Source: Bdellovibrionia bacterium (GTDB taxonomy: Bacteria; Bdellovibrionota; UBA1018). Taken from it: a DNA stretch of 42,844 bases. Below the pieces are notes generated by a model. That model was not told the origin of the DNA. It saw only the letters and a program-made list of their open reading frames with translations, and searched no databases. The position numbers and the translations under genes were made by a program. Position 1 is the stretch's first letter. Every line of letters begins with the position of its first letter. Of this stretch, positions 2,175-42,384 are shown in pieces. The DNA is taken from assembly GCA_045805065.1 (NCBI GenBank), contig JBJMMA010000034.1:1-42844 (forward strand), given 5' to 3'.

Positions 2175-3764
2175 TTGCGTCCCAATCGATTGCTGTTTGG
2201 AACCGCTGCCGCATGGGTTTGTTTGTTCTGGCTTGGATGCGTTGCGGTTCCTCTGGTGACGCTTCTTGCGCGCGTAAAAAACTGGAGCGCGCTTTGGGAT
2301 CCTTTGATTCTTCAAATCACTTATCTGACGGCCGGGCAGGCTCTGATCAGTGCCGTGATTTCTGCGGCAGTTGCCTTGCCCTTAGGGCTTTGGATCGGAT
2401 CTAGCGGTTTGGCGGAGAGGCGATGGGCGCAAGCGCTCTTAGCGCTTCCTTTTGGGGTTCCTACGGTGGTTGCAGGACTTGCGTGGGTGATTCTTTTGGG
2501 GCGCTCCGGAATTTTTGCGGGGCTCGATTGGGCCTATAGTTTCAAGGCCGTCATCCTTGCGCATGTCGTGTTCAACGTGCCGTGGATTGCGCTCTGGGTT
2601 GCGCAAGCACGCTCCTATTTGCCTGCAAGCCGACTTGAGGCTGCGCGGACGCTAGGCGCGCGCGGTGGGGCAAGCTTTAGAACAATCATCTGGCCGCAGG
2701 TCAAATGGTCCTTCTGGAGCGCGGCTTGCCAGACCTTTGTTTTCTGCGCCATGAGTTTTGCTCTGATTCTGGTGCTCGGAGGCGGGCCTCCGGTTCAGAC
2801 GCTGGAGATCGCGCTTTTTTCCCACATCCGTTTTGGAAGCCTCGACATCGATGGAGCGATTGCTTGCGCGATCTGGGAATTATTGGTCACGCTTTTGCCC
2901 TGGTGTCTGGTGGTGTATTTTCAGATGCGCGAAGAGCATGCGATCTCTCGGTCCACAAGGGAGAGAGGCCTGGAATCCTCTCGCGGCTTTTTTTTGCGAT
3001 GGCTCCCCGTGGGTGTCGCTTTGGTGTTCTTTCTTCCTTATCTTGCCGTTTTAACGACAGGACGCCACTGGGGAGAATCCGCTTACTTTCCGATCCGTGA
3101 TGAGGTCGTGCCCGCTCTATGGATCTCTTTGAAGCTCGCGCTCGCGACGGCTTTTGGCGCGCTTTTTACTTCGATCTGCGCAGTTCTTTTTATTGAGATG
3201 CTTCCGCGCCAACGTTCAAATTCTTCAAGCGCATTGCGAGGCGCGCTGCTTTTTCTCATGGGCGTGCCGAACGGGATTTCAGCGCTCGTTCTGGGGCTTG
3301 GACTTTGGCTGGCCTACGGGAAGTGGATTGATCCCTTCAGCGGAAGCTACGGCGCGATCATCGCGCTTCAGATGACGATCTTTTTTCCGATCGCGTTTCG
3401 TATTCTCTGGCCCATTGCCAGAGATCGGGATCAGAAGCTTGTTGAAGCCGCGCTCCTGATGGGCGCTTCACGCACACGCGCGTTTTTTACGGTGGAATGG
3501 TCTCGCTGGAAAGCGCCGCTTTTGAGCGCCTTTGCCATGGTCGTAGGGGCAAGCTTGGGCGAAGTGTCGGCCGTGAGTTTGTTTTACAGTGAAGATTTGA
3601 TTCCTTTACCGCTTCTTGTTTCGCGCTGGTCGGCTCAGTATCGTTTTGGAGATGCTCAGGCAGTTGCGGTGCTGTTGCTTTTTCTTTGCTCGGGAGTCAT
3701 TCTCTTAGCGTATCCCTTTGCCTATTTAGGTAAGGGGGCAGACAGGAAAATTTCCCTCCAATGA
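2175..3764 (+). CDS. thiP: thiamine ABC transporter permease
   Basis: Hydrophobic protein with two EAA loops (LEAARTLGA, VEAALLMGAS) and ILAHVVFNVP, located between thiB and an ATPase. Confidence 0.85.
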   Translation: MRPNRLLFGTAAAWVCLFWLGCVAVPLVTLLARVKNWSALWDPLILQITYLTAGQALISAVISAAVALPLGLWIGSSGLAERRWAQALLALPFGVPTVVAGLAWVILLGRSGIFAGLDWAYSFKAVILAHVVFNVPWIALWVAQARSYLPASRLEAARTLGARGGASFRTIIWPQVKWSFWSAACQTFVFCAMSFALILVLGGGPPVQTLEIALFSHIRFGSLDIDGAIACAIWELLVTLLPWCLVVYFQMREEHAISRSTRERGLESSRGFFLRWLPVGVALVFFLPYLAVLTTGRHWGESAYFPIRDEVVPALWISLKLALATAFGALFTSICAVLFIEMLPRQRSNSSSALRGALLFLMGVPNGISALVLGLGLWLAYGKWIDPFSGSYGAIIALQMTIFFPIAFRILWPIARDRDQKLVEAALLMGASRTRAFFTVEWSRWKAPLLSAFAMVVGASLGEVSAVSLFYSEDLIPLPLLVSRWSAQYRFGDAQAVAVLLLFLCSGVILLAYPFAYLGKGADRKISLQ

Positions 3765-8410: not shown

Positions 8411-8452
8411 AAACGCGCTTCAGGATCAAACCTGAAGCGCGTTTTGTTTTTT
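8411..8452. terminator. intrinsic terminator after mdh
   Basis: AAACGCGCTTCAGG-ATCAAA-CCTGAAGCGCGTTTTGTTTTT. Confidence 0.85.
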
Positions 8453-37564: not shown

Positions 37565-38717
37565 AAGTAAGTGTTGAGGTTTTTCCGTCAGGCTTTTTCA
37601 CAGCAAGCTCCATATGGCTTGCGCCTTCTTTGAGCTTGCCAAGAAGCTCAAAGGCCTTCGCGGGATCATTGATCGGTTGTCCATCCACGCCGACAATCGT
37701 GTCACCGTTTTTCAGGCCCAATTTGTCGTAGATGCTGCCTGGGACAATCTGGAAAAGTTTGTAGCCAGCAGGAACGCCGTTCTCAAAGTTTGGAACTGCG
37801 CGAGCCTGGGTGAGGATGTTGTTGAAATCGGAGAGAGCTTTGTCGACTTCGGTACGAGCGATGTTGAATTGATTTCCGCCCACCTGCTCAATGCCAGGCC
37901 CCTTTGATGCCGTTCCGCCGCCACCGATGCTGATGCGAGTGGCAGTGGCTGGATCTTCCGGAAGATCCACAAACTCACGGCGTCCGGATTGAGTGTTGAC
38001 GAAGATGACCTTGCGAGGCTCGATCTTGAGAATGCGTGCCTTGCTTGGAATCTCCTCATCAATGCGGACAGGGTAGACCATTGAAGCAGACTTGTCCTCG
38101 ATCGTGGCGATCGAGCGCATCTCGTCGCGAAGGATCAGGGTTCCCACCAGGTTAAATGGAAGGGAAGTGCGAACTGGAGCGCCGCCCATGTCGGCAGGGC
38201 CTGATGGAGTTTCCTCGCCAGGAATGATTCCTTTGCGATTGAAGAGGTTTCTCGCGAAGATCGCGTTGTATTCTTCCAAGGATTTGGTGCGGCGAGGAAG
38301 ATTAACAGGGCGAGAGGCGCGAGTCACAGGAGGCTCAGGAATGAACCTGCCTGCCATAAGCGCTGCCACGTCTGCCAGGAAATAGCAGCAGACGATCAGC
38401 GTAAACAGCTTGCCATAAAAAGCGTAACCGCGGCTCTGAAGGCTTTGGCTGACCCATTCGACCACATTGAGAAGCTCCATGCGGCGCATGGAAGAGGTGC
38501 CTGGCTCTCCACGAACACTTGGAGTTCCAGACATGGAAATCTCTGACGTCGGATCTTCCTGCTCGGGAGTATCGAGGAGTTGCGTTTTCTGTCCTCGACG
38601 GAACTTCGCCAAAATTCTGCCGGTCTTCTCTCGCATCGAATCAGCGAATGAAGAATGAGACTCGGGCTCGAATTCGGGTGTCTCAGGAGTGTTGTTGTCG
38701 TTCTGATCGTCAGTCAC
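37551..38717 (-). CDS. gspC: type II secretion protein C (PDZ-containing)
   Basis: TM, HR domain (LVGT...ATIED) and PDZ (GYKLFQIVPGSIYDKLGLKNGD). I prefer GTG 38717 because the track's TTG 38747 lies inside a sigma54 motif. Confidence 0.88.
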   Translation of the reverse strand: MTDDQNDNNTPETPEFEPESHSSFADSMREKTGRILAKFRRGQKTQLLDTPEQEDPTSEISMSGTPSVRGEPGTSSMRRMELLNVVEWVSQSLQSRGYAFYGKLFTLIVCCYFLADVAALMAGRFIPEPPVTRASRPVNLPRRTKSLEEYNAIFARNLFNRKGIIPGEETPSGPADMGGAPVRTSLPFNLVGTLILRDEMRSIATIEDKSASMVYPVRIDEEIPSKARILKIEPRKVIFVNTQSGRREFVDLPEDPATATRISIGGGGTASKGPGIEQVGGNQFNIARTEVDKALSDFNNILTQARAVPNFENGVPAGYKLFQIVPGSIYDKLGLKNGDTIVGVDGQPINDPAKAFELLGKLKEGASHMELAVKKPDGKTSTLTYDIH

Positions 38718-38963: not shown

Positions 38964-40676
38964 ATGTCCACCCCACAAAACAGCTTCATGAAGTCCCTCT
39001 TCTTTGGTCAGATTCGGGAAGATTTGATTTTCCCGTATCCCCATCTTCCCGAGGATACGAAAGAGAGCCTCAAGATGGTTCTCGATTCGATCGACCGCTT
39101 TGGCAAGGACAGCGTGAAGTCCAGCGAGTGGGATGACAAAGGCGAGATGCCGCGTGAAATCGTTGCGCAGATGGCTGAGCTTGGCGTTCTAGGCCTGGCA
39201 GTTCCTGAGGATCTCGGAGGTTTGGGGCTGCCTCAATCTGGTTACGTTCGCGTGCTTCAGCAAATGGGAGCGGTCGATGCCTCGGTCGCTGTGACGATGG
39301 GCGCGCATCAAAGCATCGGCTACAAGGCGTTGCTTCTTTTCGGAAGCGACGATCAGAAGAATAAATATCTTCCGCGTCTGGCAAGCGGAGAACTCATTGC
39401 TTGCTATTGCTTGACTGAACCCGGTAGCGGCTCGGACGCGGCGTCCATCAAGACGACGGCAAAGCTCTCGGATGATGGTAAACATTACATCCTGAACGGA
39501 AACAAGCTTTGGATCACGAATGGCGGTATCGCCACTTTTGCGACCGTTTTCGCGAAGGTCGAGGACAAGCTCACATGCTTCATCATCGAGCTTCCTGCCG
39601 AAGGCTGGAATGTGGGGCCTGCCGAGCACAAGATGGGCATCCGCGCCTCTTGGACGAACGGAATTCACATGGATAGTGTAAAAATTCCAGTCGAAAACGT
39701 GGTCGGTGGCGTAGGCCAGGGCTTCAAGGTTGCCATGGGCGTTCTCAATCACGGTCGCCTGGGCCTCGCTGGGGGCTGCGTCCAAGGCGCAAAGGTTGCG
39801 ATCAAAGCGTCGGTTGAGCACGCAACCGAGCGCGTCCAGTTCAAAAAGAAGATCGGCGAGTTCGGTCTGATTCAGGAAAAAATCGGCCGCATGATGATGA
39901 ACTGCTACGCCGCTGAGAGCATGGTCTACATGACCACGTCTTTCATTGATCGCAAGGACATGGACTATTCTCTCGAGAGCGCTTGCGCGAAAGTCTTTGC
40001 CTCCGAAATGGTCTGGGAAGTTCTCGACGAGAATCTTCAGATCTGGGCAGGTCTTGGCTACATGAAGGAATATCCTTACGAGCGCTGGCTCCGCGATGCG
40101 CGTATCAACCGCATCTTTGAAGGAACGAACGAGATTCTTCGCGCCTTCATTGCTCTTTCAGGCATGCAGGGCCCAGGACAGGAACTTGCCGGCCTTGCTG
40201 AGGCCATCAAGTATCCGCTCAAGGGGCTTGGCCTAGTCAGCGATTTCGCGATCCGCAAGATCAAGCAGAACGTCATGGGCGAGAGCATCACGAAAGCGCA
40301 TCCTTCTCTGAAGAAGATGGCAGGCATGCTTGAAGAGTACTCGGTCGAGTTCTCAACTCAGGTTGAGGTTCTTCTTCGTCGCCACGGAAAGCAGATCGCG
40401 CTTCGTCAGTTCGCTCAAAAGCGCATCGCCGATATCGCGATCGACTTCTACGCGATGGCTTGCGTGCTTTCTCGCGTGACGGATGCGATCGAGAAAAAAG
40501 GCCTGGATAAGAGCCAGCTTGAACTCAATATCGCGGAAGCATTTTTCACCCGCGCCAATCGCCGCATCCGCGGTAACTTCAAAGCCATCGATCGCAACGA
40601 CGACGACAACATGAAGTTCATCGCAACCCAGGCCTACGAGCTGGGCGGATATCCGTTCGACAGCGCCCTCGATTAA
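38964..40676 (+). CDS. acyl-CoA dehydrogenase (ACAD9/VLCAD-like, long C-terminus)
   Basis: GAHQSIG, CLTEPGSGSDAAS, NGNKLWITNG, KMGIRAS, RDARINRIFEGTNEILR. Confidence 0.93.
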   Translation: MSTPQNSFMKSLFFGQIREDLIFPYPHLPEDTKESLKMVLDSIDRFGKDSVKSSEWDDKGEMPREIVAQMAELGVLGLAVPEDLGGLGLPQSGYVRVLQQMGAVDASVAVTMGAHQSIGYKALLLFGSDDQKNKYLPRLASGELIACYCLTEPGSGSDAASIKTTAKLSDDGKHYILNGNKLWITNGGIATFATVFAKVEDKLTCFIIELPAEGWNVGPAEHKMGIRASWTNGIHMDSVKIPVENVVGGVGQGFKVAMGVLNHGRLGLAGGCVQGAKVAIKASVEHATERVQFKKKIGEFGLIQEKIGRMMMNCYAAESMVYMTTSFIDRKDMDYSLESACAKVFASEMVWEVLDENLQIWAGLGYMKEYPYERWLRDARINRIFEGTNEILRAFIALSGMQGPGQELAGLAEAIKYPLKGLGLVSDFAIRKIKQNVMGESITKAHPSLKKMAGMLEEYSVEFSTQVEVLLRRHGKQIALRQFAQKRIADIAIDFYAMACVLSRVTDAIEKKGLDKSQLELNIAEAFFTRANRRIRGNFKAIDRNDDDNMKFIATQAYELGGYPFDSALD

Positions 40677-40726
40677 AAAAAGGTATGCCATACCTTTTGA
40701 TTAAAAAAGGTATGCCATACCTTTTT
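40671..40726. repeat. tandem duplicated palindrome (REP-like / bidirectional terminator)
   Basis: GATTAAAAAA(A)GGTATGCCATACCTTTT twice (40671-40698, 40699-40726); core AAAAGGTATG-C-CATACCTTTT is a perfect inverted repeat. Confidence 0.9.
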
Positions 40727-40739
40727 GTTTAGCTTTGCG

Positions 40740-41396
40740 TCATAAGAGCTCTTCGAGCGGTTGGTAAGGCCTTCGATTCTTTGGGTCAATGATGGTGTCG
40801 AACACTCTGCGCCGGAGTCTTTTCCGGATCAGGTGTTCGGCTTCCGTCGGGAATGGTTTGTTCAGCCATTGTAATTGCTCGTAGGCGTCCACGGTAGGAA
40901 GCGCTAATTCCATTCCCACGCGGGTGTAATGGATGGGAAAAGGTAAACGAGATTTTCCTAAGAGCCCGTGAAGCGTGCTGTAAGGGGAGTCTTCGACGTT
41001 CTCGCAAAGCCGAGCTTTGACCGGGTTGCGGTACACGTACTTGAGCGCGTGTCCAAAGTAGCGAGAGTTCTTGATCATAGACCAGTGATAAGGTCCGCCG
41101 AACACATGACCTGTCTGTCCGGAAATGAGATTGATTCTCTTGGATACGGACTTCATGAGTTCATGCATGGCCTTGCCCAGGTCATGCTGTGGAACAGTGA
41201 GAATCATGTGAAAATGGTTGGGCATGAGTACGAGCGCTTGGAACTCCACTTCATAAACCGTGCGTATAAAAAGACATTCTCTTCCAAGGGTTGTCCAGAC
41301 TCGATCCAGAGGAATCGCGAAGGGTTCACGTCGATTCGTTCTCGCAGTCACATGATAGGGAAGAGAGTCACAGACCTCTAAAAGCTTTCTGGGCAT
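40740..41396 (-). mobile_element. REP-associated tyrosine transposase (RAYT)-like HUH/Y1 nuclease
   Basis: YHVTARTNRREPF, LMPNHFHMIL (HUH), YVYRNPVKA (catalytic Tyr plus NP), PYST; no tnpB nearby. Confidence 0.88.
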
Positions 41397-41408
41397 TCGG
41401 CTGAGAGG

Positions 41409-41424
41409 AGCAAGGGCACGACCA
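41409..41424 (-). promoter_or_regulatory. sigma54-like promoter of the RAYT-like gene
   Basis: TGGTCGTGCCCTTGCT (GG-N10-GC); predicted +1 near 41398, ATG at 41396. Confidence 0.5.
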
Positions 41425-41460
41425 GGTTGGGAGCCGATCGTGTCTGATCAGTGATCAATC

Positions 41461-41483
41461 GACTGTCTAAACTTTAGACAGTC
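41461..41483. repeat. perfect 11-bp inverted repeat
   Basis: GACTGTCTAAA-C-TTTAGACAGTC; the TTAGACAG half-site recurs at about 41642 and 41733. Confidence 0.8.
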
Positions 41484-41725
41484 AAACAGGGCTCATTCTT
41501 TATTCAACAAGGCTTGAGTCAATTTGGCTCCAAAGACCATCCGGACTTAAGTCATTTGCTTTTGTTGAATTACACCCGAGCACTCGGCCTGGAGTTTGCT
41601 TTAACGCCGCCCGGCATGTCGATGGGACAGGGCATCAGTTTTTAGACAGTTTTTGAACGTTTGTGGCGATTTTAAGATGCCTAATAAATTCAGGAAGTTG
41701 TTGAAGGGCACGAAGTATGTATTGA

Positions 41726-41754
41726 TTGACTCTTAGACAGTTATTTGGTAGTGT
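41726..41754 (+). promoter_or_regulatory. candidate sigma70 promoter for carD
   Basis: TTGACT-N17-TAGTGT, with TTAGACAG inside the spacer. Confidence 0.45.
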
Positions 41755-41901
41755 CTCGCGGTCTAAATTTCTGCCTTTTTTGAGTTTGCCTCGGAATTCA
41801 AAGGCGGAGTGATCGATAGGTGGCTTGTTTAATGAGGACAGCATTCCCGCGCCCTCGGACTAGCCGAATTTACCCTAACGATCTTAGGAGGTTTTTACAG
41901 C

Positions 41902-42384
41902 ATGTTTAAAGTGGGAGACAATGCAGTTTACCCTGCTCACGGTGTCGCCGTAATCAAGCGTATAGAAGAGAAAGATGTCGGTGGCAAGAAAAAGAAATTC
42001 TACGTTTTGCAGGTCGTAGACAACCAAATGACGATCATGGTCCCCACCGACAATGTCGATTCGGTCGGCTTGCGCGAGATCATTTCTACTAAAGACGTCA
42101 AAGCCGTCTATGACATTTTAAAAGAGCGCAATGTGAAGATCGATCAGACGACTTGGAACCGTCGCTATCGCGAGTACATGGAAAAGATCAAAACCGGATC
42201 GATCTTTGAGATCGCCGAAGTTTTGCGGAATCTTTTCTTGTTGCGCCACAGCAAGGATCTTTCGTTTGGTGAGCGCAAGATGCTCGATCAGGCAAAGCAT
42301 CTGTTGGTGAAGGAAATCTCCCTGGCCAAAAAAGCCAAGGAAGAAGTCATCGAGCAGGAAATTCAGTCGATTTTTGCGAGCTGA
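41902..42384 (+). CDS. carD: CarD/CdnL family RNA polymerase-binding protein
   Basis: FKVGDNAVYPAHGV, VGLREII, TWNRRYREYMEKIKTGS, LSFGERKML; AGGAGG SD. Confidence 0.95.
   Translation: MFKVGDNAVYPAHGVAVIKRIEEKDVGGKKKKFYVLQVVDNQMTIMVPTDNVDSVGLREIISTKDVKAVYDILKERNVKIDQTTWNRRYREYMEKIKTGSIFEIAEVLRNLFLLRHSKDLSFGERKMLDQAKHLLVKEISLAKKAKEEVIEQEIQSIFAS

Follow-up and report, generated by a model that had tools for sequence, protein, structure and literature searches.

A RAYT-like HUH nuclease gene joined to its cognate REP hairpin in a Bdellovibrionia bacterium, with a predicted near-leaderless sigma-54 promoter

The RAYT gene and its cognate REP hairpins

The window analyzed here comprises positions 1–42,844 of contig JBJMMA010000034.1 of a Bdellovibrionia bacterium (assembly GCA_045805065.1). 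Its minus strand carries a RAYT/TnpA-REP-like Y1 HUH gene (40740..41396), an intact open reading frame (ORF) of 218 amino acids with an HFH motif at residues 61–63 and YVYRNP at residues 118–123. At its 3' end, the gene is joined to two repetitive extragenic palindromes (REPs). A minus-strand 5' tail of the REP, TGACGCAAAGCTAAAC (40727..40742), contains the TGA that is the RAYT stop codon (40740–40742). The proximal hairpin, AAAAAGGTATG-C-CATACCTTTTT (40703..40726), ends at 40726, leaving a gap of 13 nt to that stop codon. The distal copy (40676..40698), which has no tail of its own, is a 27-nt tandem duplication adjoining the stop codon of the neighboring gene. The two copies form a 23-nt exact direct repeat (40676–40698 and 40703–40725); both are perfect palindromes, with arms of 10 and 11 bp, and neither is assigned to a strand. 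Before the start codon, a sigma-54-type -24/-12 box, TGGTCGTGCCCTTGCT (41409..41424, minus strand), predicts a transcription start (+1) at 41398 and a 2-nt leader with no Shine–Dalgarno (SD) sequence. The neighbors are both on the plus strand: an acyl-CoA dehydrogenase (ACAD) gene on the 3' side (38964–40676, 570 amino acids, stop codon 40674–40676) and a CarD/CdnL gene on the 5' side (41902–42384). Neither TnpB nor a second insertion sequence (IS) end was seen at the locus. We consider it likely that the locus is a REPtron-type unit, with the cognate REP at the 3' end of the RAYT gene, that is mobile or losable and is transcribed from a near-leaderless sigma-54 promoter. An earlier reading of the DNA letters alone, hereafter the original prediction, had listed the ORF, its HFH and YxxRNP motifs, the palindromes, the box, and a hairpin further upstream, and all of them are found at the positions it gave. 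Its claim that TnpB and matching IS ends are missing is confirmed by the annotation of the two neighbors.

The best profile of the window protein, its sequence match in the PDB, and the Foldseek ranking of its modeled fold all mark it as RAYT-like, as opposed to a TnpA of the ordinary IS200/IS605 kind. The hidden Markov model (HMM) search that had been proposed for it gives 28.5 bits with Pfam Y1_Tnp, above the cut-off of 23. The far best model is NCBIfam REP_Tyr_transpos (72.2 bits, E = 3.9e-20; curated equivalog cut-off 80), whereas the NCBIfam IS200/IS605 model gives 14.6 bits (E = 0.029; cut-off 55). The sole significant sequence match in the PDB is E. coli TnpA-REP (4ER8, E = 1.6e-8). An AlphaFold (AF2) model built from 18 homologues has a pLDDT of 92 and a pTM of 0.89, and a Foldseek search with it returns 4er8_A on top (E = 2.4e-9), followed by the ISDra2, IS200, and IS608 transposases at ranks 2–28. 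Conservation across the 18 homologues reaches at least 90% at Y120, N124, and P125, and the alignment reveals a conserved C-terminal extension in the 218-amino-acid form.

The window belongs to genome G000 (4.2 Mb, 262 contigs), which was compared with 41 related genomes; G001 is a genome of the same genus. G000 has three RAYT paralogues: the window copy, one on contig C111 (61% identity), and one on contig C152 (49%). Each is flanked by a different hairpin, and the three hairpins share the form AAAGG-core-CCTTT. With up to two mismatches allowed, type A (AAAGGAGGCGACCACCTTT, paralogue C111) has 40 copies, type B (AAAGGTCGGGACGACCTTT, paralogue C152) has 9, and type C (AAAGGTATGGCATACCTTT, 19 nt, window paralogue) has 5, with 0 copies of each type in backwards controls. 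The genome-wide count of the window palindrome that the original prediction had proposed also gives five exact occurrences of the 19-mer and none of its backwards control; three G000 loci carry it beyond the window doublet. Among the 41 genomes, the type-C hairpin was seen in this genus alone, save one single-mismatch match in G025.

The hairpins carry a one-sided tail, TGACGC-N3-5-GC.CTA.ACA, and its TGA is the RAYT stop codon in both the window and C152. Fourteen type-C copies are available from two species (5 in G000, 9 in G001). An exact TGACGC tail is present in 11 of the 14, and its side is constant with respect to the asymmetric center base; one further copy has TAACGC. In the remaining two, the tail is missing from the expected side; these are the distal window copy and a copy on G001:C59, where the tail is inverted and lies on the other side. 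None of the 14 has GTAG 5' of the hairpin; many type-A copies have GTAG on the opposite strand, 3' of the hairpin. The two window palindromes are the cognate REP of the window RAYT gene, because the tail overlaps the stop codon, the hairpin is dispersed in the genome, and the other paralogues carry other types. The claim that the gene has a palindrome type of its own, distinct from GTAG-type REPs, therefore holds.

The same arrangement was examined in a wider set of loci: from 444 relatives in public genomes, almost all of them Bdellovibrionota metagenome-assembled genomes, the best 80 were taken; this set overlaps the earlier loci and its members are related to each other. Loci L050, which contains N, and L110, where the match begins at residue 13, were excluded. 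The stop codon and the next three bases read TGACGC at 14 of 81 homologue loci. The usual layout among homologues is an inverted hairpin 50–125 nt upstream of the gene and a tail plus hairpin about 17 nt past the stop, and tandem hairpin doublets recur (for example, at L023). Hairpin statistics over these loci count perfect stems and miss imperfect REPs, so they are lower bounds only.

A competing account of the palindromes is that they are mere bidirectional terminators for the convergent ACAD and RAYT genes, unlinked to the enzyme. They do sit exactly between two convergent stop codons, bordered by an A-run at one end and a T-run at the opposite end, and further copies likewise adjoin the stop codons of neighboring genes. 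However, the identical 19-mer and the conserved one-sided tail recur at three other G000 loci and nine in G001, the hairpin type switches with the RAYT paralogue, and the ends of the cassette indel described below fall at hairpins. A simple terminator scan also makes no call on the palindromes, which have too few G-C pairs. We therefore regard the pure terminator account as very improbable; the palindromes may serve as terminators besides their role as REPs.

Two side observations concern the doublet itself. At window 40671–40703, its 27-nt tandem unit contains the last two codons of ACAD, GAT TAA, and an unrelated type-C copy near position 3076 of G001:C52 has the same TCGATTAAAAA junction as the window doublet. 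The shared junction may be a preferred target or part of the repeat. A further observation concerns type-A REPs, which often occur as inverted pairs 215–280 bp apart with their tails inward (for example, C30:12014/12296, C72:15502/15725, C135:11839/12054, C159:9635/9848, C180:24902/25117, and C214:3452/3719). Such pairs look like REPIN- or MITE-like units around other sequence.

The original prediction had also suggested that the enzyme may maintain the dispersed hairpin families of the window. Nothing supports that idea, because the window's remaining perfect hairpins (at 8411, 15228, 37628, and 37950) are each single-copy in the genome and lack a REP tail, and none is of REP type; the hairpin at 37950 has GACGC within 30 nt. 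An Rfam search returned nothing above the gathering score, and its weak microRNA-type palindrome matches are attributed to chance.

Possible mobility and distribution of the cassette

In G001, only 18–19 nt lie between the ACAD stop codon and sequence that matches the window from about 41440 onward. The segment absent there spans about 760 bp, from 40677 to about 41440 (the right edge is uncertain, 41434–41444), and comprises the REP doublet, the RAYT gene, and about 45 nt of leader that include the box. No close RAYT homologue was found in the 95%-complete G001 assembly, with none at E ≤ 1e-10 and a best profile match of 41.9 bits. Homologues at E ≤ 1e-10 are present in 14 of the 41 related genomes. 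Insertions or deletions (indels) relative to G001 are found at all three paralogue loci, and at those of C111 and C152 homology with G001 resumes at the outer foot of the REP hairpin. The difference at the C111 locus is a replacement and no simple insertion: where C111:8334–9192 (L002 1425–2283) has a REP-RAYT-REP block, G001:C9:18558–18959 has an ORF of about 120 amino acids that resembles a single-domain response regulator. Synteny of the site is kept inside the genus only, and the difference at the window locus may be an insertion in G000 or a loss in G001. Exact matches to the window are found among contigs of four DNA runs; these runs possibly represent the source sample and add little. 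No empty-site joint was seen in them, and two bridge the 5' junction.

The nine type-C hairpins of G001 lie on contigs C6, C19, C42, C52, C59, C175, C235, C361, and C424. Loss of the enzyme may have left them behind as orphan repeats, or the RAYT gene may be unassembled, given an assembly that is 95% complete. The three RAYT–hairpin pairs of G000, together with these nine hairpins in a genome with no close RAYT found, offer a natural system in which to follow the birth and decay of repeats.

From these genome comparisons, the RAYT-REP unit acts as a mobile or losable cassette and not as a fixed host gene. The description of the enzyme as domesticated and host-regulated is at odds with three divergent paralogues, presence in 14 of 41 genomes, and indels against a congener at all three loci. 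Indels of this kind could be taken to mean that the locus is a one-ended remnant of an ordinary IS200/IS605 insertion sequence. The cassette is indeed an indel between congeners with subterminal hairpins at its ends, as in IS200/IS605 elements. Nevertheless, the IS200 model gives only 14.6 bits against its cut-off of 55, TnpA-REP is the best match both by sequence and by fold, the paralogues are merely 49–61% identical and hence no IS copies, and solo dispersed hairpins far outnumber gene copies. There is accordingly very little to recommend the view of the unit as a degraded IS, and we retain the assignment as a RAYT-REP cassette.

The sigma-54-type box and the resident palindrome

The sigma-54 consensus attributed to Barrios et al. 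in 1999 reportedly reads TGGCAC-N5-TTGCW. A TGG-N9-TTGC box was found 27–32 nt before the conserved MPRK start in 7 of the 18 homologues from related genomes and in weaker form in 2 more; one homologue has a perfect TGGCACTTTCCTTGCT. In the wider set, 38 of 82 loci have a box within -36..-24 by a consensus scan that required GG-N10-GC and a minimum of 8 matches in 12. In the remainder of the 100 nt upstream, the same scan gives 6 hits; the opposite strand has 7, and the first 100 nt of coding sequence have 0. Gibbs sampling of 81 upstream regions without a positional prior recovered TTGGCA[TC]-N5-TTGC[TA] in 5 of 6 restarts; 62 of the 81 sites share one position, and information is high at GG and TTGC alone. 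As a guard against circularity, an independent matrix was trained on the flanks of 26 unrelated enhancer-like palindromes, described below, and the same motif emerged. Scored with this matrix, 27 of 81 loci have a match of 10 bits or more at -36..-24, against 0.0017 expected per locus; other positions give 3 matches, and the opposite strand gives 0. The recurrence of the box at one position in homologues, which the original prediction had proposed to look for, is thereby seen at 27 to 38 of about 81 loci. With the C of GC set at -12, the predicted leaders are 1–6 nt across the family, and SD-like tetramers occur at 1 of the 27 loci with a strong box and at 8 of the other 54.

The genome encodes the matching machinery. 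An rpoN (sigma-54) gene is found on contig C21 (218 bits), and PF00158, the ATPase domain of bacterial enhancer-binding proteins (bEBPs), has 24 matches, 17 of them with E < 1e-40. A simple sigma-70 scan yields promoter-like matches at no more than the level of shuffled sequence. In the window, setting the C of GC at -12 places +1 at 41398, 2 nt before the ATG. The window box lies at -28, a position typical of the family, and scores 11.0 bits on a matrix trained on the family and 5.6 bits on the independent one; 0.014 boxes with at least this score on the independent matrix are expected over the 13 positions examined. These data indicate that a near-leaderless sigma-54-type box is, at the level of sequence, a conserved feature of the family, and they suggest that the RAYT family in Bdellovibrio-like bacteria is switched on via a sigma-54 promoter nearly atop the start codon. 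The position of +1 and leaderless translation are predictions. The sigma-54 part of the original prediction thus stands for the family, by scan, Gibbs sampling, and independent matrix alike, and is weak for the window's own box.

The conserved TGG-N9-TTGC box could instead be the remnant of an inverted REP tail, kept as a recognition or cleavage site for the transposase, and no promoter at all. The inverted tail, TGGTAGCGC-N4-GCGTCA, likewise fits GG-N10-GC; the box in one homologue (L012/L041) is the REP tail itself; and the window box, TGGTCG..GCTCC, is equally near that tail and TGGCAC. However, L010, L020, and L023 have their box (TGGCATCAGTCTTGCT, TGGCACTTTCCTTGCT) apart from, and after, a complete inverted REP tail, and the family consensus, TGGCA[CT]..TTGC[TA], is unlike TGGTAG..GCGTCA. 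The consensus also matches the motif found independently beside the 26 enhancer-like palindromes. On this evidence, an origin of the box as a relic of the REP tail is improbable, and a sigma-54-type promoter is the better description.

The hairpin further upstream, GACTGTCTAAA-C-TTTAGACAGTC (41461..41483, no strand), is context lying outside the module and is a candidate enhancer, that is, a bEBP binding site. Its perfect 11-bp arms are centered on 41472, and it lies 74 nt from the RAYT +1. It falls outside the segment missing from G001 and is kept at the empty site there, with one outer pair changed from A-T to G-C, a compensatory change. Its 19-bp core, CTGTCTAA-N3-TTAGACAG, has 27 genomic occurrences with up to two mismatches. 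An outward match to the sigma-54 matrix, with its GG 45–140 nt from the palindrome center, accompanies 23 of the 27 sites, against 0.046 expected per site. The distances from palindrome to GG cluster near 60, 82, 93, 104, and 114 nt, a roughly helical spacing. The palindrome has a CTGTC half-site that we take to be reminiscent of PilR-type sites. By this pattern of spacing and pairing, the 19-bp palindrome is very probably a bEBP site with a large sigma-54 regulon, and the family would mark such a probable regulon in an uncultured lineage. There are 26 sites beyond the window (for example, C134:8173, C176:17562, C55:23967, and C245:5660), and two, those on C134 and C176, adjoin bEBP genes.

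On the plus strand, a strong sigma-54-type promoter (41582..41601, 15.8 bits, predicted +1 near 41611) has its GG 114 nt from the center of this palindrome. Beyond it lie about 180 nt of non-coding sequence (promoter and stretch together, window 41582–41790) that is nearly identical in G001 and has a T-run at its end; RNA folding of this conserved stretch lends no support to a defined fold (z-score 0.46, not significant). The stretch is probably a sigma-54-driven small RNA or a CarD/CdnL leader, both candidates. The half-site TTAGACAGT recurs within it, at 41641 and 41732. The palindrome is probably a resident enhancer whose main client is the promoter at 41582. The RAYT box lies on its other side, 49 nt away, in helical phase with the common 60-nt class.

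These positions bear on the original prediction of a domesticated, host-regulated nuclease, read with the upstream 11-bp hairpin as its dedicated activator site. The hairpin is enhancer-like, 23 of the 27 members of its family are paired with a sigma-54 promoter, and its 49-nt distance from the RAYT box is in the phase of the common 60-nt class. Against a dedicated role, the hairpin is kept in G001, which lacks the RAYT gene; a much stronger client lies on its other side (15.8 versus 11.0 bits); an enhancer-like palindrome lies upstream at only 1 of 81 loci, the window; and the gene is patchy, has multiple paralogues, and is polymorphic between congeners. A domesticated system with a dedicated activator site is therefore unlikely. 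Because it is kept at the G001 empty site and is absent from other homologue loci, the palindrome is a neighbor and not a part of the module. The claim that it belongs to the module fails on three counts: it lies outside the approximately 760 bp missing from G001, it is one of a 27-member family, and none is found at the other 80 homologue loci.

Proposed mechanism and comparison with known systems

These comparisons allow us to propose a mechanism for the REPtron-type unit. The RAYT gene is joined at its 3' end to the REP, whose tail, TGACGC..CTAnACA, supplies the stop codon and is followed by the hairpin AAAGGTATGGCATACCTTT, tandem-duplicated in the window. Homology to TnpA-REP of E. coli and TnpA of IS200/IS605 suggests that the enzyme would bind its REP, folded within a single DNA strand, and would cleave and rejoin the DNA beside it via a Tyr–DNA intermediate. 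Such cleavage and rejoining would account for the spread of hairpins to gene ends and for the observed cassette indel boundaries at REP hairpins. Transcription is predicted to start from the sigma-54 (-24/-12) promoter 1–6 nt before the ATG, giving a leaderless mRNA, and the promoter type implies that this mRNA would be silent unless an enhancer-binding ATPase acts. The cassette itself has no enhancer, and the window box lies 49 nt from the resident enhancer-like palindrome; accidental co-activation of RAYT from that palindrome is possible.

Several observations weigh against this model. The REP_Tyr_transpos score of 72.2 bits falls below the curated NCBIfam value of 80. The window copy has no upstream (5') REP and may be a truncated, immobile remnant. 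Its box is degenerate, with TGGTCG instead of TGGCAC and 5.6 bits on the independent matrix, and the C111 and C152 paralogues have no good box at the family position. A clear box is present in just 27 to 38 of about 81 loci, which are kin and not independent, and in one homologue (L012/L041) it coincides with an inverted REP tail that itself fits GG-N10-GC. No family-conserved enhancer was found, with an enhancer-like palindrome upstream at 1 of 81 loci, the window itself. Moreover, no bEBP that lacks a DNA-binding domain and could act from solution was found among the five short ones checked of the 17 strong matches: the four complete ones have HTH_8, a DNA-binding helix-turn-helix (HTH), and the fifth is truncated at the end of its contig. 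The four (C184:8281–9405, C184:19750–20814, C234:23164–24174, and C130:5140–6120) consist of AAA+ and HTH_8 with no N-terminal sensor, a PspF-like architecture.

A bolder version of the model can be offered only tentatively, and we think it somewhat doubtful. In it, a Bdellovibrionota RAYT/REP clade would be wired to sigma-54 with no enhancer of its own and with leaderless mRNAs, so that the gene would be fully silent unless an enhancer-binding ATPase acts nearby and REP mobilization would be set by the landing site. The window RAYT box stands one helical turn nearer to the resident enhancer than the common 60-nt spacing, and in this version cutting would be coupled to the signal of the 27-site regulon. 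The timing and cause of RAYT expression are an open point in work on REPs and REPINs, for which a conserved enhancer-dependent promoter would provide a testable switch; it would also represent an uncommon instance of a leaderless mRNA transcribed from a sigma-54 promoter. No link between RAYTs and sigma-54 or RpoN was found in the literature searched (Creative Commons full texts and bioRxiv preprints). In the comparative RAYT papers, the word "promoter" is absent from the main text of PMC8266576, and neither "promoter" nor "sigma" occurs in that of PMC5581495 or PMC6006769.

Like enhancer-dependent sigma-54 promoters, the RAYT box has an invariant GG and an invariant GC at a distance of 10 nt, the spacer between them being variable, and the same motif occurs beside enhancer-like palindromes. 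It differs in its position 1–6 nt before the start codon, in the leaderless mRNA that this implies, and in having no enhancer of its own. The IS200/IS605 TnpA proteins (IS608, ISDra2) share the fold with the window protein, and their systems share hairpins at the ends of the unit and indel boundaries at hairpin feet. They differ in that the window protein is far below the HMM cut-off, there is no TnpB, and the hairpins are dispersed without the gene.

The closest counterparts are the REPtrons. In those studied, GTAG 5' of the palindrome is the guide sequence, as stated by Corneloup et al. (2021, PMC8266576), whose work covers the REPtrons of S. maltophilia and Marinomonas, the latter with a REP of 10-nt arms. 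The window system shares with them a Y1 HUH fold nearest to 4ER8, dispersed short palindromes flanking the gene, and the inverted REPs on both sides that are typical; its small perfect palindromes resemble the Marinomonas REP as described in that paper. It differs in the absence of a 5' GTAG, in a longer tail, TGACGC-N3-5-GC.CTA.ACA, that is fused to the stop codon, in a 218-amino-acid protein with a conserved C-terminal extension, and in the sigma-54 box. Bertels et al. (2017, PMC5581495) describe RAYTs of Groups 2 and 3 as inherited vertically and mostly present in a single copy, whereas their Group 1 is IS-like. With the REPIN-RAYT systems of Groups 2 and 3 in Pseudomonas and enterobacteria, the G000 system has in common one paralogue per repeat type and, for type A, inverted pairs. 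Unlike those systems as portrayed there, it has three paralogues, a patchy distribution, indels between congeners, and low copy numbers (5–40), and by the same description it is nearer to the IS-like Group 1. The RAYT-REP system of the window is therefore a REPtron of a known kind that differs in its REP tail, its longer protein, its IS-like behavior, and, above all, its sigma-54-type box.

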